Positions 1,823 through 52,707 of a stretch of 64,000 bases of DNA are shown piece after piece. Position 1 is the stretch's first letter; every line of letters begins with the position of its first letter. Under the pieces are notes generated by a model. The model made no database searches. It was not told the origin of the DNA and was given only the letters and a program-made list of their open reading frames with translations. The position numbers and the translations under genes were made by a program. Location of the stretch: the UHGV virus genome UHGV-0112180. One strand, given 5' to 3'. The stretch is from a virus.

Positions 1823-2728
1823 TTAACGTTCTGCTTCACCACCAACGGCCTCCACCAGCGAAGTGAACATCGCGGATAATTCAGCAGTAAACAGGATAAA
1901 GTCAGCGTCAAATCGTTGCGCAACATCCTCTCGATCAATATCGTCGTTCTGGTCGTACAATTCGTCGCTGAACGACAAAGCCTTGATACTCATATCGTCA
2001 TTCAGTCTGAAAAATGCACGGTCTTGCCAGTTAACCGCAACTGTGGTTGCAACCTTACCAGCTTCTATATGACTCATGATCTCGTCGGATAGCAGGTCCA
2101 CTTTTTTGCAGCGGACCGCGCCGCCATCATCAAGCAATGCTTTTAAGGTCGCTTCCTCACCGGCACGGAAACCGTTCGGGAAGCCATTTTTAATCCAGCC
2201 AGTGATGGTCAGTTCTAATGGGTCTTTCGGAGAGAAGGGGACAACGGGCAAGCTGCCAAGCGATTTCCGTAACAAAGCCAGCTGATCCTCTGCTTTTTTA
2301 GCACTGCTGGCCTCGACAAAAACCAGATGATTGCTTCGGTCTATCAGGATTTTAGCGACTGATTTTCTCGTGAAAGCACGAGGAAGCAGAGAGTGAAGCA
2401 CTTCATCCTTCAGCGAATCTTTTTCAGTCTTCTTCAGCTTTCTGTCTTGCTCTTCTTCAAGTGTCAGGATTTTTTTCTGTAACTCTTCTTTGAGCACTTG
2501 AGAGGGTAGGATTTTTTCCTCTCGTTTATGCTGTATCAGAAGAAAACCCTGGTATTCATGGGTGAGGTTGTCACCAAGAACGGAGGTCCAACCAGCTTTA
2601 GCCATATCCTGAGAACCGCATGGGGTAAACACAAACTTGCTAAGGGCTGCATTTACTTCTGCAGTATCCCAGCTAACTTCGCGTGAAAGACGATAGATGA
2701 AGATATTTTTGAAAGCGACTGATCTCAT
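1823..2728 (-). CDS. RdgC-like recombination-associated protein (P1 HrdC analogue)
   Basis: Near full-length similarity to E. coli RdgC from memory: [83 protein letters not shown]. Confidence 0.85.
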
Positions 2729-2787: not shown

Positions 2788-3441
2788 CTATCCTTTCTTG
2801 AAATCGAAGTTGCCAGCAGTGGCCTGAAAGGTTCCTCCTGCCTTGAAAGCTATGTCTCCGTTAGCGGTGACAGCTATATTTTCCCCATTAACATTGATGT
2901 TGTTGGCTGATTTGACGTTAACACTCCCTCCTGCATTCACGATTACATCAGCCGGACCAATGATATATATCTGCCCGGACTCATTCATGCCAATCCTTGA
3001 GCCTGCTGCCGTATTGGCAATTTCATAGCCGCCACCAGCAGTTCGTACTTCAAGAATATTGTTGCGGTGAATAACGAAGTCTTTCGTTGCTGAGATTTGG
3101 GGGCGGGGAGGTGCTCCATCTACTTCCGGCGGCGTCCAGCCGTTGCCTTTGCCAGATGCTTCTGGTGCAACGTTTGGAATTCCTCCCGGTGCATCCTGAG
3201 CGGCACCAACTATCATTGGGCGTCTGGTGTCTATTCGACCGTTAACATCTAAATAAGGAAACTCTACCCAGACCAGGTCACCTTTGACTGTAGGTACAAA
3301 AGCGTTCCCGATGGGTAACTGGTATTCCGCCCAGGGTAGATCGTCATCAGGAACGCCATTCCAGTCAGGTAAAACACGGACTTGAGCACGCATAAGCCCT
3401 GCCGGGTGCACAGTTCCAACAATTTGCGCTCTACGCTTCAT
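2788..3441 (-). CDS. Baseplate hub/spike protein (gpV-like N-terminal OB fold plus beta-helical repeats)
   Basis: N-terminal pattern GTVHP...RAQVRVLPDW...GDLVWVEFPYLDVNG typical of baseplate assembly protein V; C-terminal GGSVNVKSANNINVNGENIAVTANGDIAFKAGG repeats. Confidence 0.5.
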   Translation of the reverse strand: MKRRAQIVGTVHPAGLMRAQVRVLPDWNGVPDDDLPWAEYQLPIGNAFVPTVKGDLVWVEFPYLDVNGRIDTRRPMIVGAAQDAPGGIPNVAPEASGKGNGWTPPEVDGAPPRPQISATKDFVIHRNNILEVRTAGGGYEIANTAAGSRIGMNESGQIYIIGPADVIVNAGGSVNVKSANNINVNGENIAVTANGDIAFKAGGTFQATAGNFDFKKG

Positions 3442-4418
3442 TTGTTAGGCACTCCCAATATCATTCGTGTTGTGTAGCCTACGCGGTCCTCAAAGTGCGC
3501 AACATTTTTTACTATCAGCTTACGGGGCATTGATTCATCAATGCGGTTTTCCTGGTCATAGCGGTATACGATAATCTCTATTACCATCCCCGGTTTTATA
3601 TCAGGATTGCCTGCGACTTCTATATCCATTTTGGGGACGAGAGACAGCTGCATATTGCGAAGAGTTTCCATATCAGAGTCGGATATATAACGCACTGGGA
3701 GTGAGCTATCGCCATATTCGACGTAGCCATCGGTCATGGAATACCCAACAAAACGATATTGATTCTTTGCTGTTGTCGCATGTTCCTGTTGGAGTAGGCG
3801 CATTTTGGACAAAGTGTATTCTGCTTTAGGGTTATTCCCCTCGTAGGTAAATGATGGCGTTTGCTTCATCAGATCAGCCAGGGTATAAAAGTTAAATTCC
3901 CCCCGACATACCCAACACAATGCACCTTTGTCTCGCGCTATCTCCGAAAGCATTTTTGACGGTTTGTCACCGGCATTCAGATGATATGTAACTGCGCGTT
4001 TTAGCACGCTGCTGGTAATTTTAAGTTTGCCGGAATATGCCTTGAATATAGCGTCTGGTGTTTTGTTGGTATGTAAATTTGTGCGCGGGGAGGGGATCTT
4101 AAACCTGCGCACGTCTTCACTGACAGCAATAACGGTAACAACATCACCAGCCAGCATTGCAGACGTAACAAAGAAATCTGTTTTAAAAGTGCCTGCATTA
4201 CCGTTTGGATCGCCCATTTCAGCCACCAGCGATGCACCGTATTTGGCTTTCCAGTCATCAATTACGGTGCCGGTAGCGTCATGAATTTCCAGTTTTAGCA
4301 AAGGGGCTTTGAGGCTGGTTTTTTCTACATATACTGCGGTAAAAATCCAGTCTCGTGGCACTTTGTTATCGTTAATGAGCACTGACTGTAGAAAATATTG
4401 TTGTAACTCCTGGGCCAC
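3438..4418 (-). CDS. Hypothetical phage protein (tail/baseplate region)
   Basis: 326-aa ORF coupled to neighbours (4-nt overlaps); no recognisable motif. Confidence 0.35.
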   Translation of the reverse strand: MAQELQQYFLQSVLINDNKVPRDWIFTAVYVEKTSLKAPLLKLEIHDATGTVIDDWKAKYGASLVAEMGDPNGNAGTFKTDFFVTSAMLAGDVVTVIAVSEDVRRFKIPSPRTNLHTNKTPDAIFKAYSGKLKITSSVLKRAVTYHLNAGDKPSKMLSEIARDKGALCWVCRGEFNFYTLADLMKQTPSFTYEGNNPKAEYTLSKMRLLQQEHATTAKNQYRFVGYSMTDGYVEYGDSSLPVRYISDSDMETLRNMQLSLVPKMDIEVAGNPDIKPGMVIEIIVYRYDQENRIDESMPRKLIVKNVAHFEDRVGYTTRMILGVPNK

Positions 4419-13606: not shown

Positions 13607-13918
13607 ATTGGCAGCCTCCTTTGACTAAGTTAAGGAGCTACCGCGTGAGGTTCCAATCTCAATGGCGGTAGCACTGACTGGGTTGGAACTACCGGCGTCA
13701 AAGGGAACCGGCCTGCCTTTCGGCAGCCCAGCCAGCACTACCATTGATCTCTGAGCTAAACGCTAAGTATGGCTGTGCGATGGCATGACACAAAAAAAGA
13801 CGCGTTCGGCGTCTGTGTCGCCTTTGACATTATCCGGGGTTCCAATCCCGGCACCCGTTTTTCTAAGGTGCCGTAGAAATATACCCCACGATAATGCCAG
13901 GGCGCAACAGTCAGTATT

Positions 13919-14996: not shown

Positions 14997-15268
14997 GATG
15001 GCAGTCTCTTACTTTTCAACGATTTTTCTATGATTGATCATAACCGTTAGATATTCAAAATTGATTTTCTAACACAAAACATTAATATCATCACTGATAA
15101 ATGTTTGGAGGACATGATGCTTATAGCTTTAAGTGCGATCCACCAGCCATCTGTGAATGAGATTGGCCTGTTCTATGTGTTGGTTTTCGGGGCGTTGGCG
15201 CTACTTGAGCTTGGTATTGAGCTTTTCGCAGTGCTTATGTTTTGCGTCACGATTCTGGGGAAATTTTG

Positions 15269-19608: not shown

Positions 19609-19705
19609 TCAAATCATTTACGCACTCAAAATACGTTAGAACATTGATTTTAGTTTTCTAACATATTATTTTACCACTCGGAACAAAACAGAGTCGGTAT
19701 GCATT

Positions 19706-20701
19706 ATGAGTGCAATAATCACCCCATATGTCGTAAATGAAACTGGTGTGGCTGTCTTTCCTGTAGATAAGCCCACCAGCAATTACATCGGCGCAGGACG
19801 CCGTTTTCTTATATCCCCATTGCCGCGCGAACAGGTTGAAAACACCCCTGATGGCGTCGTGGACCTGAATTATTCCCTGGTTGCCAACCAGTCACTGACA
19901 CCCTTTTTTCAAAGTGAGCGCGTATTTAATGCGTTAGGTGGTGAGGATTCTATCGTTCACTGGGTTAGCACCAACATTCACGATTGCCAGGCGCATGATA
20001 AGCGTGATTGTAGCCACCAGCTAACCACTCACTTCTATAACGGTTCTGCCGTTCGCCTGTGCTGGAAGCATGATGCGGAATACATGATGAAGGGGTACGG
20101 CAAGCTTGACGACCAGCTATCCCTGAATCGCGCCAACTGGATTATGAACTGGGCCGCCAGCGAGTTAAAACTTCCGCCAGACCGCGATCTTAGCATGGTT
20201 GAACTCACCTTTTGGGCCATTCGCCGGAATCTTAAAGACGAGCTACCTGATGAAGCTGGTCGCATTGCATTTTGTCAGCCAAAGCCTGAGATCCCTACAG
20301 GCACTCTGAAAGAGTCGGATATCACCTGGGAGCACAGCACCCGCGAGCTGGTGGATATTACCGCAGAGCAGATCGTCAACCTGTCTGTAGATGAAGATTC
20401 CGGCCTGCTTTATATGCGCCGACCAAAAACGGTCCTCGGTAAAAGCCCGGCTTATCTCCGGTTTGTGGTTTCTCGTCCGTGCATCGGATGCGGTGGAAAA
20501 GTTAATCACCCGTTCATGTACCGCGCCCGCTCGTTAAACGAACACGATCGCTGGGCTGTTCCTCTTTGCGATGAATGCGCCAGAAGCGCAGAAAACGATG
20601 TCCGGGCATGGGAAAAAACGCATGGCATACGCCTTTACGTAGCCGCTAACCAGCTTTTCGATTTCGCCATCGAGCGCGGAGTGATCACGTTCAATAACTG
20701 A
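19706..20701 (+). CDS. Hypothetical protein with C-terminal Cys-rich metal-binding motif
   Basis: CIGCGG...HP...PLCDECA near the C-terminus. Confidence 0.4.
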   Translation: MSAIITPYVVNETGVAVFPVDKPTSNYIGAGRRFLISPLPREQVENTPDGVVDLNYSLVANQSLTPFFQSERVFNALGGEDSIVHWVSTNIHDCQAHDKRDCSHQLTTHFYNGSAVRLCWKHDAEYMMKGYGKLDDQLSLNRANWIMNWAASELKLPPDRDLSMVELTFWAIRRNLKDELPDEAGRIAFCQPKPEIPTGTLKESDITWEHSTRELVDITAEQIVNLSVDEDSGLLYMRRPKTVLGKSPAYLRFVVSRPCIGCGGKVNHPFMYRARSLNEHDRWAVPLCDECARSAENDVRAWEKTHGIRLYVAANQLFDFAIERGVITFNN

Positions 20702-36962: not shown

Positions 36963-37030
36963 GCGCATAGCCGCAATTACCACAACGGAAACGGCGCTCG
37001 CGTTAATTAAACGCCTTTTCCTGTTGTGCG
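36963..37030. repeat. Hairpin element, member of the ACAACGG...CCTGTTGTG family (unit R1)
   Basis: GCGCATAGCCGCAATTACCACAACGG...CCTTTTCCTGTTGTGCGCC; shares its 5' box with the unit at 38141. Confidence 0.35.
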
Positions 37031-38006: not shown

Positions 38007-38273
38007 TGGTTATCCCTCAATAAACATGACGTATTTATTAGGTTGCGGTGCCTGGTGCCTCCAGGTGACGTTAACCAGTTAACAATTAACGCCGGGATGT
38101 TTGACTTAACCACTAAGGAGGATTGTTTTAACTGTTCCGCGTGCGCATAGCCGCATTCACCGCAATGGTAAGAGCACTTGGCTGGCTGGGCGGCGATGAC
38201 GCCTGTACGCATTTGGTGATCCGGTTCTGCTTCCGGCATTCGCTTAATTAGCCAAATACTCTTAACGTTGCAC

Positions 38274-38360
38274 TGGCGGAGAGTAATGGAATCGAACCAT
38301 CATCGCTTGCGCAATGGGACGGTTTTCAAGACCGTTTGAGCACCATGCTCCCTACTCTCC
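38274..38360 (-). tRNA. tRNA-Ser(UGA)-like, type II with long variable arm and atypically short D-loop (possible pseudo-tRNA)
   Basis: Acceptor GGAGAGT/ACTCTCC + G + CCA; anticodon arm ACGGT-CTTGAAA-ACCGT; T-arm GATGG-TTCGATT-CCATT; D-loop only about 5 nt. Confidence 0.45.
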
Positions 38361-38462
38361 AGTGATTGTGATGGTCGGTGCTGAACTCCGACACAGGGTT
38401 GTAGCAAGCCCCGCAAAGCGCGCACTACTGTAGTTGCGGCACATCAGCCTGTGCATTCACCA

Positions 38463-38552
38463 CAATGTTGAGAACACTGGTTGTCACGCTGCAACGCAAC
38501 ATTTATTCGTAGATTGGGATATGACCCCGTTACGCCAGTGTTCTCAACGTTG
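38463..38552. repeat. Hairpin element of the tRNA-array repeat family (18-bp near-perfect inverted repeat)
   Basis: CAATGTTGAGAACACTGG ... CCAGTGTTCTCAACGTTG with about 55-nt loop. Confidence 0.45.
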
Positions 38553-38690
38553 TAGTGCCGGTTACGGTTCCGGCCAGGCCTCTTCCTCAACGGGGTGTTC
38601 TCCATACGGACTACCGTTTATTGGTCGTTCCTGCGGTTTATGTTGTGAAGCCAGATGCTTATCTTCTGGTTGCTTCAAAGAGCTGCACTT

Positions 38691-38770
38691 CATCACAACG
38701 GTAAGAGCACTCGATGCATTTAAGCCAAGCCCCATAAGGGAGAATGCCCTTACCTGTTGTGTTGTGATGA
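38691..38770. repeat. Hairpin element of the tRNA-array repeat family
   Basis: CATCACAACGGTAAGAGCAC ... GCCCTTACCTGTTGTGTTGTGATG. Confidence 0.45.
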
Positions 38771-38884
38771 CCGGTGCTGATCTCCGGCTTGCGGTTATTT
38801 CAGACTCTCACGGGCGTTTATTTGCCCCGCCGAACAGCTCTTTTCCGCAATAGCTGCAATGTCTTTCGCGCATCAGCCTGCGCA

Positions 38885-38977
38885 TTCATCACAACGGTAA
38901 GGGTACTTCGTAGGGATTCGAACCCTCTGCCAAGCACGGCGATCTCCGACGTCGCAAAATACCCTTACCTGTTGTGT
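38885..38977. repeat. Hairpin element of the tRNA-array repeat family; interior carries a tRNA T-arm-like GGGATTCGAACCC
   Basis: CATTCATCACAACGGTAAGGGTAC ... TACCCTTACCTGTTGTGTTGG, ending immediately before tRNA-Thr. Confidence 0.45.
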
Positions 38978-39054
38978 TGGTGCCGGTTAACGGACTCGAA
39001 CCGCTGACATCCTGCTTACAAGGCAGGCGCTCTACCAACTGAGCTAAACCGGCA
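38978..39054 (-). tRNA. tRNA-Thr (UGU)
   Basis: TGCCGGTTTAGCTCAGTTGGTAGAGCGCCTGCCTTGTAAGCAGGATGTCAGCGGTTCGAGTCCGTTAACCGGCACCA; perfect acceptor and anticodon stems. Confidence 0.8.
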
Positions 39055-39057
39055 ATT

Positions 39058-39144
39058 TGGTGGGGAGTGATGGAGTCGAACCACCCGAGTCGCAATGACA
39101 GTAGATTTACAGTCTACCCCGCTACCCCTACGGACTAACTCCCC
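39058..39144 (-). tRNA. tRNA-Tyr (GUA)-like, type II
   Basis: Acceptor GGGGAGT/ACTCCCC + A + CCA; anticodon arm GTAGA-CTGTAAA-TCTAC; long variable arm; D-arm somewhat atypical. Confidence 0.55.
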
Positions 39145-39149
39145 TGAAT

Positions 39150-39226
39150 TGGCGATGGTGGGTGGATTCGAACCACCGACCGACAGCTTAGAAGGCTGCT
39201 GCTCTATCCTACTGAGCTACACCACC
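39150..39226 (-). tRNA. tRNA-Arg (UCU)
   Basis: GGTGGTGTAGCTCAGTAGGATAGAGC...CCTTCTAAG...GGTGGTTCGAATCCACC...GCCA; anticodon loop CUUCUAA as in argU. Confidence 0.75.
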
Positions 39227-39426
39227 ACTGTGCCGGGTACGTCTCCGGCGAGGGCTTCCACCTCCGTATGCTTTTCGGCGCACCGCGCCCTGGCTGCAAT
39301 TCAGTAACAGGGGATGCATAACCCTGGCTTCCAGCGTGATTAGCGCCTTCAGCATGACGGGATATACCCGTAACCAACAAACTTTCCCATATACCATCAA
39401 GCAATGGCTGTTACGCGGGAGGGACG

Positions 39427-39505
39427 TAACAGGTAAGGGCGCTGACCAGAAAGACCTGACCCTTCTCATTCATCTGGTTAATCACACCAGCGCCCTTGCC
39501 TGTTA
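39427..39505. repeat. Hairpin element of the tRNA-array repeat family (17-bp inverted repeat)
   Basis: TAACAGGTAAGGGCGCTG ... CAGCGCCCTTGCCTGTTA. Confidence 0.45.
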
Positions 39506-39730
39506 TGCCTCCCCGTTCCCTAATACACAGACGGGGACACTCTGCGGTCGATTTTTTGACGGGGGACGACTCATACCCCGTGGCGTCAGGCTTCTTAGGC
39601 CGCTACCATCATCAGATCATCGTTTGCATTTACTTTAATGGTCGGGTTCTAAACCGCCGCAAAGTCGCTAACCATGACGAAAACCCTAAAAAAGCCCACC
39701 CGAAGATGGGCAAATACGCTACATCTCACA

Positions 39731-39809
39731 CAAGAAAGAAGCCGACTGCCTGAGCTGGATTCACTTTCAAATGCCCGCTGAAAGGGATCACAAGTCGGCT
39801 TCTTTCTTG
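39731..39809. repeat. Large hairpin (17-bp perfect inverted repeat) in the noncoding region
   Basis: CAAGAAAGAAGCCGACT ... AGTCGGCTTCTTTCTTG with about 45-nt loop. Confidence 0.4.
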
Positions 39810-40461
39810 ATGCGGCACTCTCTCCGCCCGTCACCGCTCTGTCTCGGTTGTCGCGTTTGCCACGCCAGCCATAACGAGGTTTAAAGTCTTTTCACGTTCC
39901 CATCACTCGACTGCCGTCTGTGGCTGTTCGTTGCAGCGGGGGTGCCTCCCCCTGGGGATATCCCCGGCCTTACCCCATTCTTTCAAGACACAATGCAAGG
40001 CCACATCCGCATAGGTGCATTACCGCAACATTAAGGAGACTCAGGGCAAAAGGTAACCGCCACAAAAATCCCTATGCCTCCTTAATGTTGAAGATGTGCA
40101 TTGATGATTAGATGCAGCATGTACCGTTACTCTCTGCCGGACCATCATCAATGAACACCTTAAAAAGACCTTCCGTGGCTCAACATGTATTGTCGTTTAC
40201 TCCGCAAAGTGCTCTCTCTGAAACCACTTTCCGCACTAAACCTGTTGAACTTTGGTCTGCTCGGTGCCAAAGCGTGCTCTTGGTTTACTATACTTTTCTA
40301 ACACTTTAATTTGTTAATTGCTGGTGGGCAAACAATAACCAATAAGTGACTATCAAGCCCAGCAAGCGAAACGTGGGTACCGCCCACCAGCAAGGAAAAT
40401 TCTATGTTAAGTCATCTTCACAATCAATACATTCGAATTGTGATTTTAGATTTCTAACACA

Positions 40462-41670
40462 TTATTTCCCATAAAGATCTTCTACACCCCCATTCTTCTT
40501 ATCCCATTCGTTCGCCCATACCCGGCAAGCGTCAATGATTTCCTGACGACGATCTCCTTGCATGAACGGAATGCTTTCATGGAAACAGCTTGGAATGCAG
40601 GCCACACTGAATACAGTATCAAACTCCGTCTGCTTGATTGCCTCCAGCGTCTCCGGACGCATTTTTAATTCATCGATTGGCGCATCCTTAGAGTCCATAA
40701 TCCGGCGATATAAGCGCGGAAAATCCGTCTCCAGGTACGCCATAATTTTATCTGCGAGACATTCGTCTATGTCGGTATTCCAGTCCTTTTCGAAGCCCGG
40801 CAGGCGATAGTAAAGCGGCGTTCCCCATACCGATGGGATCACATCCATCGTTAACAGGCGATTAGTTCTGATTTGTTGATGGTAATTAGCCGTCAGCAGT
40901 GCTTCGCCACGCTGCCCAGTTTCCGCAACCAGGCCGTGCGGATACTCATGGATGTAGGCAATGGCATCCCTTCCATCATACATAAGTGGAAATGTCTCTG
41001 GTCTTTGTCCCATGCCACAAGCACGGTTCAGATCGTGACCAAGCTGTGAGCACTCTCGCTTTAATGTTTCGATAATGCTCTGCGCTGTAGCCAACTTTTT
41101 ACGCAGTGTGACGCCTTCGCCTTGATAATCAATGCATTGCTGATTGAGCTTGGTTAAACGCTCTTTTAGTTCCCGGCGCTCTCTTTTCAGCGTGCGGTTA
41201 TCCTTCTCCGCAACATCCAGCCGCTTTGTCAGGCTGGGCGGATAGTCTTTTTTGTAACGGTTCAAATCGGCTTCGGCAGATTTACGCAGTGTATTTGCCT
41301 GTTCAAGACGCGCTTCCAGATTGCCGATCTCATTACGCATATTCGCGGCAAATTGATTAACTGCATCGCCCAGGCTTTCAACTGTCGCTGATACGCCTGT
41401 GACTTGTGAAAAACGGATCAAGCCATCATTAACGGCTTGTTGGTATTCCTCAAACTGATCCACCAGCTTATTGTAATCAACTGCCCCATCATCAAGCAGC
41501 TTGTTGATTTCCGCCACCAGGTTATCTGTAGTGGCAATGACACTCTCGTGCAGTCGCTTTGACAGGTCATCTCCCGGATTCCGTTTCTGTATAAGAGCGA
41601 TTTGTGTGCGCAGCGTTTCAATTGCTGTCGAGATAATTTCCAGATTAGAAGTATCAGTGTGTTGACTCAT
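40462..41670 (-). CDS. Hypothetical coiled-coil protein
   Basis: About 400-aa ORF; start ambiguous (GTG at 41685 or ATG at 41670). Confidence 0.4.
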   Translation of the reverse strand: MSQHTDTSNLEIISTAIETLRTQIALIQKRNPGDDLSKRLHESVIATTDNLVAEINKLLDDGAVDYNKLVDQFEEYQQAVNDGLIRFSQVTGVSATVESLGDAVNQFAANMRNEIGNLEARLEQANTLRKSAEADLNRYKKDYPPSLTKRLDVAEKDNRTLKRERRELKERLTKLNQQCIDYQGEGVTLRKKLATAQSIIETLKRECSQLGHDLNRACGMGQRPETFPLMYDGRDAIAYIHEYPHGLVAETGQRGEALLTANYHQQIRTNRLLTMDVIPSVWGTPLYYRLPGFEKDWNTDIDECLADKIMAYLETDFPRLYRRIMDSKDAPIDELKMRPETLEAIKQTEFDTVFSVACIPSCFHESIPFMQGDRRQEIIDACRVWANEWDKKNGGVEDLYGK

Positions 41671-41783
41671 TGCTGTTCCCGTCACTTTGTTAAATTAGTT
41701 TTCTAACATATTTTATTAGTTTGATGACGGTATCGGAAGATGCAATAAACAAAAAACCCGCTAATTGGCGGGTTTTTATGCAA

Positions 41784-42294: not shown

Positions 42295-42789
42295 TTAATC
42301 AAGACAAACATACTCCGTGATAGCTTTTATGGCTTCAGCGGCACTGCGCGCCTCAAAGCAGTAGTAACCGGCTTCAGTGAGGCGGGTCATCCAGACGAGT
42401 TGTTCGGGAGTCAGGCGATTTCTCCCATGTTTCATCTCAATGCGCATTCCGTGGTATCCCCCACAAGCAAGGTCTATAGAAAGATCGGGATATCCCTTCT
42501 TTTGGCCCTCTGCCACCATTTTTATTGCCGTCCTTATGCCTCGCAGGCCACCGTTTGGAGTGGCGTGAGTATGCTCATACACATAACGCATATTGCGATA
42601 CAACCAGTCCAGGACGCGAACCTGCTCGTAATGCTCATGGTTCCTTTTGATTAGATCTGGGTTTTTCTCCAGTTCTCTAAGAGCTGCGGCATGTGGGGAT
42701 GTTTCAGAATATTCACTGCGACGCCTTCTCTTTCGCGCTATTTTTCTAACACACCCATTGATGGTAAATATGCGAAATAATAACAACAA
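42295..42789 (-). CDS. VRR-NUC domain nuclease-like protein
   Basis: KKGYPDLSIDLACGGYHGMRIEMKHG resembles the VRR-NUC (PD-(D/E)xK) core; N-terminal extent uncertain. Confidence 0.45.
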   Translation of the reverse strand: MLLLFRIFTINGCVRKIARKRRRRSEYSETSPHAAALRELEKNPDLIKRNHEHYEQVRVLDWLYRNMRYVYEHTHATPNGGLRGIRTAIKMVAEGQKKGYPDLSIDLACGGYHGMRIEMKHGRNRLTPEQLVWMTRLTEAGYYCFEARSAAEAIKAITEYVCLD

Positions 42790-52294: not shown

Positions 52295-52707
52295 AGTTAC
52301 GGCCTCACTAACAGGTTTAACAACCTGCTACCCGCTGTCAAACAGGTGGCAGGACGTGACAGGGTTGACAGACTGGCGTTAGTGAAACCAGCAGGCCGAA
52401 GCCTCCCCATCACGCCCCACCATAATTCGGGCGTAACGCGGTTTACGGACACAAAAATACCGCAATATCGGAAATCTGCGGTTGTCCGCACTAACATTCA
52501 GGCTGTCAAACCTGGTCGCAGAATTTGCTACGACGGCATGAATATAAGCCTGAAAACATGGAAGATCAACTAAAAATTTCAGCAATGGATGACTTCAGTC
52601 GATGATGCAGATCATACATTCCGATTTAGAAACAGCAAATTAATTTTCTAACACAGATTATCGAGCGAGCATTTTCCGATCATTGGGATGTTTTGTAGAC
52701 ACACAGG

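Follow-up and report, generated by a model that had tools for sequence, protein, structure and literature searches.

A probable tmRNA-like RNA in the structured leader upstream of the tRNA array of a D6-like phage-plasmid

The question raised by the virus sequence UHGV-0112180 is what some 1.2 kb of DNA at positions 39230 to 40460, beside a cluster of transfer RNA (tRNA) genes, is doing there without a gene of its own. The whole stretch that was analysed, 64,000 nucleotides (nt) long, is referred to below as the window. The original prediction, which had only the letters to work with, noted long perfect hairpins and two operator-like motifs in this region and proposed that it might hold a replication origin, a structured RNA or a regulatory hub. 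The window belongs to a phage-plasmid of the P1 family that resembles D6. The region (39231-40460) is 98% identical to Escherichia phage D6 and 100% identical to the E. coli plasmid NZ_CP047013.1, and the 485 nt beside the tRNAs (39231-39714) are about 91% identical to P1, P7, SJ46 and their relatives. P1 is among the most studied phages, yet the segment is essentially unannotated; it is blank in the D6 record and in nearly all of the matching plasmids examined, and in the P1 record it has only the label "dicF-like region". The reading that we consider probable is that the region is the repressor-controlled promoter and structured leader of a D6-like tRNA operon, with an RNA resembling transfer-messenger RNA (tmRNA) in the half that is conserved in P1.

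Both the five tRNAs of the array (Met, Ser, Thr, Tyr and Arg-UCU, found with ARAGORN and Rfam) and the flanking open reading frame (ORF) of 407 amino acids (aa) at 40462-41685, which the D6 record identifies as a homolog of P1 pmgS, are encoded on the minus strand. The region is therefore on the 5' (upstream) side of the tRNA array, and the earlier description of it as lying downstream of the array was wrong in functional terms. The features of the half next to the tRNAs, in window coordinates, are these:

39498-39684, minus strand: core of the tmRNA-like phage RNA (covariance model R1, sub-threshold Rfam match, tag-frame constraint and covariation)
39628-39684, minus strand: 5' domain of the tmRNA-like RNA (R1 match)
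39595-39627, minus strand: tag frame GCA AAC GAU GAU CUG AUG AUG GUA GCG GCC UAA (read from the sequence)
39589-39601, minus strand: stop-codon hairpin (family covariation)
39559-39581, minus strand: stem-loop of pseudoknot PK2, whose loop GUCG (39567-39570) pairs with CGAC (39547-39550) (family covariation)
39511-39546, minus strand: pseudoknot PK3, in which CGCAG pairs with CUGUG in the loop (family covariation)
39232-39249, minus strand: T-arm-like hairpin GCCGG-AGACGUAC-CCGGC, 5 nt before tRNA-Arg, assigned by analogy
39150-39226, minus strand: tRNA-Arg(UCU), first tRNA of the array that the leader would feed (ARAGORN, Rfam)

In a relaxed Rfam scan, RF04321 (tmRNA_permuted) gave a sub-threshold match of 22.8 bits at 39700-39595, and the same place was matched in P1 and relatives; the score of RF00023 in the window was 6.5 bits. 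The source of the RF04321 score is the segment UAAAU GCA AAC GAU ... GUA GCG GCC UAA, which is in register with the tag region of RF04321. The window frame encodes ANDDLMMVAA*, as compared with ANDENYALAA* in E. coli tmRNA. Like a tmRNA tag of about ten residues, it runs from a GCA resume codon without a start codon, there being an in-frame UAG 8 codons upstream and no AUG, GUG or UUG between. The stop codon is in the loop of a hairpin equivalent to helix 5 of tmRNA, and two pseudoknots follow it; ahead of the tag, the helix is nested and does not establish a true PK1. The hairpin at 39232-39249 has the position of the GCCGG-AGAUCAGCA-CCGGC or canonical GGUUCGAnUCC arms with which the element ends in other phages.

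A covariance model, R1, was built from 37 copies in phages other than P1 and contains no P1-like sequence. It nevertheless matched the window at 39684-39498 over its full length (model positions 1-180) with 81.2 bits and an E-value of 2e-17, while P1 scored 81.8 bits and D6 79.8 bits, so that the window has a full-length, significant match to a model derived from other phage groups. The window copy keeps both pseudoknots with sequences of its own (GUCG:CGAC for PK2 and CGCAG:CUGUG for PK3). A second, weak R1 match at 19758-19843 (19 bits) looks like chance.

SSU5-like Klebsiella phage-plasmids have the same block at 77% identity; their frame reads ANDDVVLMAA*, and RF04321 scores 39.6 bits there. 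A BLAST search with the SSU5-like copy found matches in 720 phage records from several families, among them Ackermannviridae, Felixounavirus/Suspvirus, Schitoviridae, 46-kb siphoviruses, P1 and others. In the loci examined, the element is within or beside tRNA arrays, on the strand of the tRNAs, and is unannotated. When the tag was scanned for from an anchor in the 5' motif outside it, all 103 of the 103 copies that could be parsed had exactly 10 sense codons followed by a stop, which may be TAA, TAG or TGA. Synonymous variation is seen at the Val and Ala codons, and among the encoded peptides are ANDDVVLMAA, ANEEMYLAVA, ANDEQFLAVA, ANDDLMLMAA, ANDNTFLAVA and ANDSEVLMAA. For the tag frame, the ratio of nonsynonymous to synonymous polymorphism (pN/pS) was calculated as 0.55, whereas the two remaining frames gave 1.69 and 0.98; this is a constraint of the kind seen in coding sequence.

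The structures covary as well. The stop-codon hairpin is closed by GGC/GCC in some copies and by UAGCC/GGCUA in others; PK2 occurs as CCGA:UCGG, CCAG:CUGG and CCAA:UUGG, and PK3 as CGCAC:GUGUG, CGCAU:AUGUG, CGCAG:CUGUG, CGGAU:AUCUG and CGUAC:GUAUG. The two pseudoknot interactions are paired in 99% of cases, with double changes. Over all stems and both pseudoknots in the 37 non-P1 copies, 95% of cells are paired and 9 pairs have changed on both sides, compared with 39-54% paired in controls with slid partners. Judged by sequence, the predicted P1-conserved RNA of about 450 nt thus belongs to a widespread, unannotated family that is homologous to the mRNA-like half of tmRNA. Short of being a demonstrated tmRNA, the element probably descended from that half and probably works like it.

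The resemblance to tmRNA (SsrA; RF00023, RF01849-RF01851 and RF04321) extends over several parts. Shared by tmRNA and the family are the GCA resume codon after an A/U-rich UAAAU context with a closing helix, the start-less frame of 10 codons that opens with AN(D/E) and ends in a hydrophobic residue followed by A-A or in A-V-A, the stop codon in the loop of a short hairpin (helix 5), and two pseudoknots directly after it. Some of the phage copies also have the 7 base pair (bp) acceptor stem, T arm, A73 and CCA. Unlike tmRNA, the element is embedded in phage tRNA arrays, its T loop is often non-canonical (AGAUCAGCA), and the copies of P1/D6, Felixounavirus and several others show no tRNA-like domain.

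A tmRNA needs a tRNA-like domain. Several results weigh against a tmRNA-like function and are best taken together. A canonical tRNA-like domain, with a G3:U70 acceptor stem, T arm and 3' CCA, was not found in the window copy, and ARAGORN at default settings called no tmRNA in the window or in 117 related loci. No match reached the Rfam gathering threshold of 47 bits, the scores being 22.8 in the window and at most 39.9 among the relatives. The G3:U70 pair of alanine identity was present in none, including the relatives with the best tRNA-like ends. When the element was aligned with E. coli ssrA, the best local alignment always had the tag in register, with scores not above those of shuffled sequences and no significant similarity outside the tag, and R1 did not match E. 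coli ssrA. Finally, the covariation counts come from related sequences and represent few independent events, and the P1-like copies are too alike to show selection within the P1-like lineage.

Searches for T arms and acceptor strands found convincing tRNA-like ends only in some phages other than P1 (related loci being cited by L numbers, these are L233, L163, L166 and those of the L139 type). The clearest are in L233, with 5' UGUGGCG, a canonical T arm and CGCCACA-A-CCA, where U3-A70 takes the place of G3:U70. Many other phages have the degenerate T arm GCCGG-AGAUCAGCA-CCGGC followed by CACCACA-A. The 5'-most UGUGGUG strand competes with an internal duplicate, and because of this duplicate of the 5' strand the topology is ambiguous between a one-piece RNA and a separate tRNA-like unit. 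Two other candidates were set aside: with its threshold lowered to 80%, ARAGORN reported the ANDDLMMVAA frame with implausible halves of a tRNA-like domain, alongside obvious false positives, and a possible closing helix of 5' UUUUCG with CGAAAA 3' in the window copy, read from the sequence only, is not conserved in other phages.

These ends bear on a second explanation, by which the region is a processing leader and nothing else: the hairpins would be sites for RNase III, E or P, and the tag frame of P1/D6 an inactive remnant of a phage tmRNA that was formerly complete, conserved merely through its linkage to a structure that is needed. In the P1/D6 copy both acceptor strands are lacking, a terminator hairpin stands before the element, and the T-arm-like hairpin (39249-39232) is followed after 5 nt by tRNA-Arg, all of which fits a relic. 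So do the long stems of 16-27 bp between the tRNAs, which resemble substrates of double-strand RNases, and the case of the Klebsiella pneumoniae IncY mcr plasmid NZ_MH781719 (L137), a P1-like plasmid in which, at 1286-2520, a gene of the TnpB family (IS200/IS605 type) stands immediately upstream of the tag element; the insertion replaced the 5' domain, and the tag frame and downstream structures were kept. However, none of the P1-like copies examined has a broken frame, the sole variants being the conservative ANDNLMMVAA and ANDDLMMAAA, and the PK2 and PK3 pairings are preserved in P1/D6 with their own sequences. Copies of the Felixounavirus type, which also have no tRNA-like domain, retain an intact tag and lead from a strong promoter of their own straight into tRNA-Arg(UCU). 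A relic in a processing leader is therefore considered unlikely, and a tmRNA-like RNA in the P1-conserved half is the preferred reading.

A survey of tmRNA genes from 2014 had no phage representatives other than mycobacteriophages and Bacillus phage G, and it reported none in enterobacterial phages or plasmids (PMC4131195). The phage tmRNAs are those of the mycobacteriophage Bxz1 group and of phage G, while the RNA of mycobacteriophage DS6A is a tRNA-like domain only (PMC4131195). Like the present family, these, with the incomplete DS6A form, are phage-borne derivatives of a trans-translation RNA; they differ in being canonical enough for standard tools, and DS6A keeps the tRNA-like half whereas the P1/D6 copy keeps the opposite, mRNA-like half. 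A full-text search of the literature for the tag peptides and for phage tmRNA-like RNAs found no description of the element, an earlier mention in the P1 or D6 genome papers being possible. Another parallel is found in phage T4, whose tRNA gene cluster contains two stable small RNAs, species 1 and 2, of unknown function. These are also structured non-tRNA RNAs that are transcribed and processed together with a phage tRNA cluster; they are not known to have a tag frame.

How would such an RNA come to be expressed? In the P1 record, the homologous place has the promoter Pban with the bivalent C1 operator Op72ab, then the "dicF-like region", and then tRNA-Asn, tRNA-Thr, tciABC, tRNA-Ile and ban. 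The region in the window is the counterpart of this segment from Pban/Op72 to the tRNAs, the leader of the C1-controlled "ban operon". The two agree in genomic position and strand logic, in the 485 nt next to the tRNAs, in a terminator at the same place, and in a promoter that carries a repressor operator, which in the window is a prediction. They differ in the gene upstream of the leader, which is pmgS in the window and dmt in P1, and in the distance from operator to terminator, about 130 nt in P1 and about 570 nt of unrelated structured sequence in the D6 lineage. They differ also in the operator, of the ATTGCTCTAATAAATTT type in P1 and of the TGTTAGAAA type in the window. The term "dicF-like" is a mere label in the P1 record: the covariance model of the DicF small RNA (RF00039) had no match in the window (E up to 10) or in the P1 "dicF-like region" (E up to 1).

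At the end of the region next to pmgS, the following control elements are predicted:

40443-40459, minus strand: predicted operator O1, TGTTAGAAATCTAAAAT, which begins 3 nt past the stop of the pmgS-like gene and is kept in all D6-like relatives
40399-40427, minus strand: sigma-70-like promoter, designated promoter P1, TTGATT, 17 nt spacer, TAGAAT (promoter scan)
40287-40303, minus strand: predicted operator O2, TGTTAGAAAAGTATAGT, a copy of the TGTTAGAAA motif that overlaps a putative second promoter
40287-40317, minus strand: putative second promoter, TTAACA, 19 nt spacer, TATAGT (suggested by its sequence)

The two operator-like motifs of the original prediction turn out to be strongly non-random, and to be copies of one dispersed motif. 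The 9-mer TGTTAGAAA occurs in 12 exact copies in 64 kb, against 0.6 expected and a maximum of 3 in shuffled sequence, and the 17-mer AAWTAAWGTGTTAGAAA has 7 matches at up to 3 mismatches, against 0.76 expected. The consensus, TRTGTTAGAAAAYTAAWTT, is asymmetric and 17-19 nt long. Beyond O1 and O2, copies of TGTTAGAAA are at 2742, 14408, 15066-15074, 19655-19663, 29918, 31328, 41700-41708, 42743-42751, 52645-52653 and 53844, of which one is just upstream of the start of the pmgS-like gene (41685). The copy at 52645-52653 is upstream of a c4 antisense-RNA locus, as Op51 is in P1. As with the C1 operators of P1, the site is an asymmetric one of 17 bp with many dispersed copies, including those at the start of an operon and upstream of a c4 locus. 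What it has in common with the P1 C1 operators in sequence is only an AAxxAATTT-like half, and the P1 consensus ATTGCTCTAATAAATTT has 0 matches at up to 3 mismatches within the 64 kb. The motif would thus point to an immunity system of the P1 C1 kind with another specificity, a C1-type repressor being predicted to bind to the TGTTAGAAA boxes, and the copies provide a candidate operator set, or map of the repressor regulon, for the D6 immunity type. Two separate C4 antisense RNA loci (RF01695) lie on the minus strand, at 13661-13871 and 52342-52547, each with two TGTTAGAAA copies nearby; one adjoins an isrK-like RNA and the other has an a1/b1 target element, which suggests two immI-type modules in one phage-plasmid.

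In a promoter scan of 38900-40700, TTGATT-17-TAGAAT was the sole promoter-like site. Both of its hexamers are kept across the D6-like lineages, the -10 element being TAAAAT in L007 and L032. The spacing of the putative second promoter is good in L007 (CTAACA, 17 nt, TATAAT) and poor in the window, where with its 19 nt spacer this promoter is weak, a further point to be counted with the unfavourable ones above. With two copies of a genome-wide operator-type motif flanking or overlapping sigma-70-like promoters directly downstream of pmgS, the idea of a regulatory hub gains support.

Between these operators and the tmRNA-like element, and partly overlapping the latter, are the structured elements of the leader:

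40318-40393, minus strand: hairpin I12, with a 12-13 bp stem, UUGCUGGUGGGC / GCCCACCAGCAA, between the two operators (z = -3.4; helix 1)
40091-40161, minus strand: hairpin I6 (z = -4.1; helix 2)
40026-40090, minus strand: hairpin I5, whose stem sequesters UAAGGAGG (z = -5.3; helix 4)
39930-40025, minus strand: core A, about 97 nt, nearly invariant, with three small hairpins (lineage alignment)
39818-39929, minus strand: module B1 (comparison of relatives)
39731-39809, minus strand: hairpin I8, with a perfect 17 bp stem (39731-39747 / 39793-39809) and a loop of 45 nt (helix 8)
39688-39711, minus strand: intrinsic terminator GCCCAUC-UUCG-GGUGGGC with U6 and a 7 bp stem (terminator scan; helix 10)
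39418-39513, minus strand: H1, the first hairpin of the original prediction, which belongs to a family of long hairpins, ACAACAGGYAAGGG... / ...CCCUUACCUGUU, repeated along the tRNA array

Both hairpins that had been described as perfect 17 bp stems are real. The one at 39731-39809 is as described, and the one at 39427-39505 is an 18 bp stem with one wobble or mismatch (T:G / C:A), within arms of 27 nt that are 81% complementary (39418-39444 / 39488-39514). Compared with shuffled sequences, folding of 39412-39520 gave z = -5.7 on the minus and -8.7 on the plus strand, and that of 39725-39815 gave -5.3 and -6.0, respectively. Three further hairpins, at 40318-40393, 40091-40161 and 40026-40090, had not been noted before.

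The D6-specific half, 39716-40280, is a chain of conserved hairpins ending in an intrinsic terminator. In an alignment of 13 D6-like sequences, the leader hairpins are 96% paired overall, compared with 40-51% with slid partners, counts that rest on few independent lineages. I12 is paired in 93% of cells with an almost invariant stem sequence, I6 in 96% and I5 in 100%, I5 having 2 pairs that changed on both sides and a loop that was replaced in one lineage while the stem was kept. I8 shows compensatory changes at 2-3 pairs in the L004 lineage, where one pair is broken. The terminator, 100% paired, is kept in P1-like and all D6-like sequences and marks the start of the P1 homology. A global RNAalifold prediction for the whole 500 nt was uninformative. 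The G.U pair in I6, the G.U pairs in I5 and the changes from G.U to G-C type in the terminator are compatible with a minus-sense RNA only, and the RNA strand is therefore taken to be the minus strand. P1 and L007 versions of H1 also keep the stem, with minus-sense G.U pairs. Among D6-like lineages with flanks of only 52-75% identity, core A is 98-100% identical; a 1-nt insertion in one lineage speaks against coding, and the core flags a second conserved RNA or DNA element. Module B1 is 81% identical to a Pantoea phage-plasmid, where it occurs alone, beside a long hairpin and an aberrant tRNA. A Shigella dysenteriae plasmid has the P1 "dicF-like" module in place of B1 and I8, and in plasmids of the E. 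marmotae type the D6 and P1 "dicF-like" modules are both present in tandem. The proposal of a structured RNA is also supported, and made more specific, by the tmRNA-like RNA in the P1-conserved half and the chain of hairpins with its terminator in the D6-specific half.

The long-hairpin family to which H1 belongs raises the possibility that the hairpins act at the level of DNA, as miniature inverted-repeat mobile elements or as recombination sites of tRNA cassettes. The stem family (ACAACAGGTAAGRGC; ACAACAGGYAAGRGC) has at least 6 copies in the operon and occurs also in Pantoea plasmids and unrelated siphoviruses, and it is the stem sequences themselves that are conserved and not the pairing alone; tRNA content and the order of modules also vary between close relatives, as would be expected of such elements. 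Yet the G.U pairs work only in the minus sense and the changes are compensatory, the hairpins share an orientation and a 3' neighbour (GUGAAUGCRC...), unlike random insertions, and the perfect 17 bp hairpin I8 differs in sequence from the ACAACAGGTAAGRGC family. A DNA-level role for the hairpins is accordingly rated as quite improbable, and the structured RNA leader is preferred. The long hairpins themselves may be processing sites, mimics or DNA-level cassette boundaries.

That the region contains no credible ORF holds true on closer analysis. The transcribed (minus) strand has only short ORFs with non-ATG starts, none reaching 62 aa, and in alignments of the relatives, indels of 1, 2 and 7 nt and replacements of whole loops disrupt every candidate frame; conventional small ORFs are not conserved among the relatives. 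The notion that small proteins were overlooked by the ORF criteria draws on a "hypothetical protein" annotated over the P1-homologous part in some records (SJ46, JL22) and on the sequence UAAGGAGG at about 40076-40083. Against it stand the frame-breaking indels and a transcribed strand without any ATG-started ORF of at least 30 aa. Moreover, UAAGGAGG is base-paired within hairpin I5, and what follows it has been replaced in one lineage. No gene is listed there in any of the 108 plasmids, out of 120 matching at all, that carry the greater part of the D6-specific sequence, nor in the 97 of 5426 complete E. coli genomes with the segment, in which it is always on a plasmid. Overlooked small proteins are for these reasons highly improbable.

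A replication origin, the remaining function that had been proposed, was not supported. No tandem repeats, iterons or clustered direct repeats were found in the region, and there is no inflection of GC skew across it; GC content is 50-58% over most of its length, and the promoter segment alone is AT-rich. All that could be cited for an origin or a partition site are the inverted repeats and the absence of genes, while the homologous P1 sequence is annotated as promoter and leader, not as oriL or oriR, and the P1 origins are situated elsewhere in that genome. Next to no credence is therefore given to an origin or partition site.

With the repressor-controlled leader as the reading to be preferred, the following sequence of events can be pictured. 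In the prophage, a C1-type repressor on the two TGTTAGAAA operators at the pmgS end would shut off one clear and one putative sigma-70 promoter. Derepression would then allow transcription of a D6-specific leader of about 570-700 nt (I12, I6, I5, core A, B1 and I8), which would end at the conserved terminator, a likely attenuation point or the 3' end of a small RNA. Read-through would produce the P1-conserved RNA of about 450 nt and, beyond it, tRNA-Arg/Tyr/Thr, the tRNA-like units, tRNA-Ser, tciAB and tRNA-Met, presumably to be released by processing. The 10-codon frame would most likely be decoded by trans-translation, by which a phage-specified tag of the degradation type would be added to stalled nascent chains. 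As the P1/D6 copy is without evident tRNA-like ends, it may need a partner RNA or may act otherwise.

The tRNA array that follows the leader has several features of its own. The long-hairpin family, with the stem pattern ACAAC[A/G]G[G/T]TAAG[A/G]G ... C[T/C]CTTACC[G/A]TTGT, is found on the minus strand at 38160-38990 and 36975-37030, as well as in L008 (2370-2480), L165 and L233, each long hairpin being followed by GTGAATGCRC and a small hairpin. In Pantoea plasmids and siphoviruses, the family adjoins the tag element, and the loop at 38912-38935 contains the T-arm-like GAGGGTTCGAATCCCT. Between the long hairpins are two tag-less, tRNA-shaped units on the minus strand, at 38761-38895 and 38365-38466, each closed by a stem of 9 bp (GUUGUGAUG / CAUCACAAC) and containing both a hairpin that resembles a D arm (GCGCAGGCUGAUGCGC) and a T-arm-like CCGG-AGAUCAGCA-CCGG; they have UUGCGG and UUCGGCG in common with the tag-bearing element and are called tRNA by no tool. 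In the Pantoea plasmid NZ_CP034366 (L008), an aberrant tRNA-like gene of 99 nt at 2261-2359 (minus) has a long insertion in the anticodon region, scores 45 bits with the Rfam tRNA model, is negative in ARAGORN and directly abuts a hairpin of the long family.

At the head of the array, the window and several plasmids have tRNA-Arg(UCU), where P1, D6 and L007 have tRNA-Asn(GUU). Comparison of 39150-39226 in the window with 3925-3997 in D6 (L002) and 3922-3997 in P1 (L001) showed that acceptor stems and flanks are nearly identical, and that the anticodon arm and part of the D and T arms differ, which looks like an anticodon or identity switch through internal replacement. The window has an extra tRNA-Tyr. 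The D6 record (L002, MF356679) places its three tRNAs, at 3292-3997, on the strand opposite to that of the homologous tRNAs of the window as found by ARAGORN and Rfam; the strand of the tRNAs in that record is probably an annotation error in the deposit. Matches to the Rfam small RNA STnc100 recur just upstream of tciA (TerB-like): in the window at 38044-38164 (minus), with 40 bits against a threshold of 47, and also in P1 (L001, 3146-3265), L004 (1121-1258) and L186 (2223-2436). In an Ackermannviridae contig, STnc100 is above threshold, with 48.7 bits.

As to what the element means for these phages, it may be, and this is put forward tentatively, that P1, D6, SSU5-like phage-plasmids and many virulent enterobacterial phages, among them Felixounavirus, Ackermannviridae, Schitoviridae and 46-kb siphoviruses, carry an unrecognised class of tmRNA-like RNAs that redirects ribosome rescue in the course of infection and adds phage tags such as ANDDLMMVAA, ANDDVVLMAA and ANEEMYLAVA. 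Such RNAs would be co-expressed with tRNA arrays, and the class, with a non-alanine or degenerate tRNA-like domain or with a separate tRNA-like partner RNA, would be a new variant of trans-translation. The element is a concrete RNA that can be put to the test, with a defined tag, defined pseudoknots and the easy genetics of P1. If it is a working template for trans-translation, phages of several families would supply their own RNA for ribosome rescue and tagging in addition to tRNAs. That would bear on the responses of phages to host shut-off, to codon starvation and to defence nucleases whose action gives rise to non-stop mRNAs, and on the function and evolution of tmRNA without a canonical alanine tRNA-like domain. 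If true, it would constitute a new layer of phage takeover, or of counter-defence against immunity that cleaves mRNA or tRNA.

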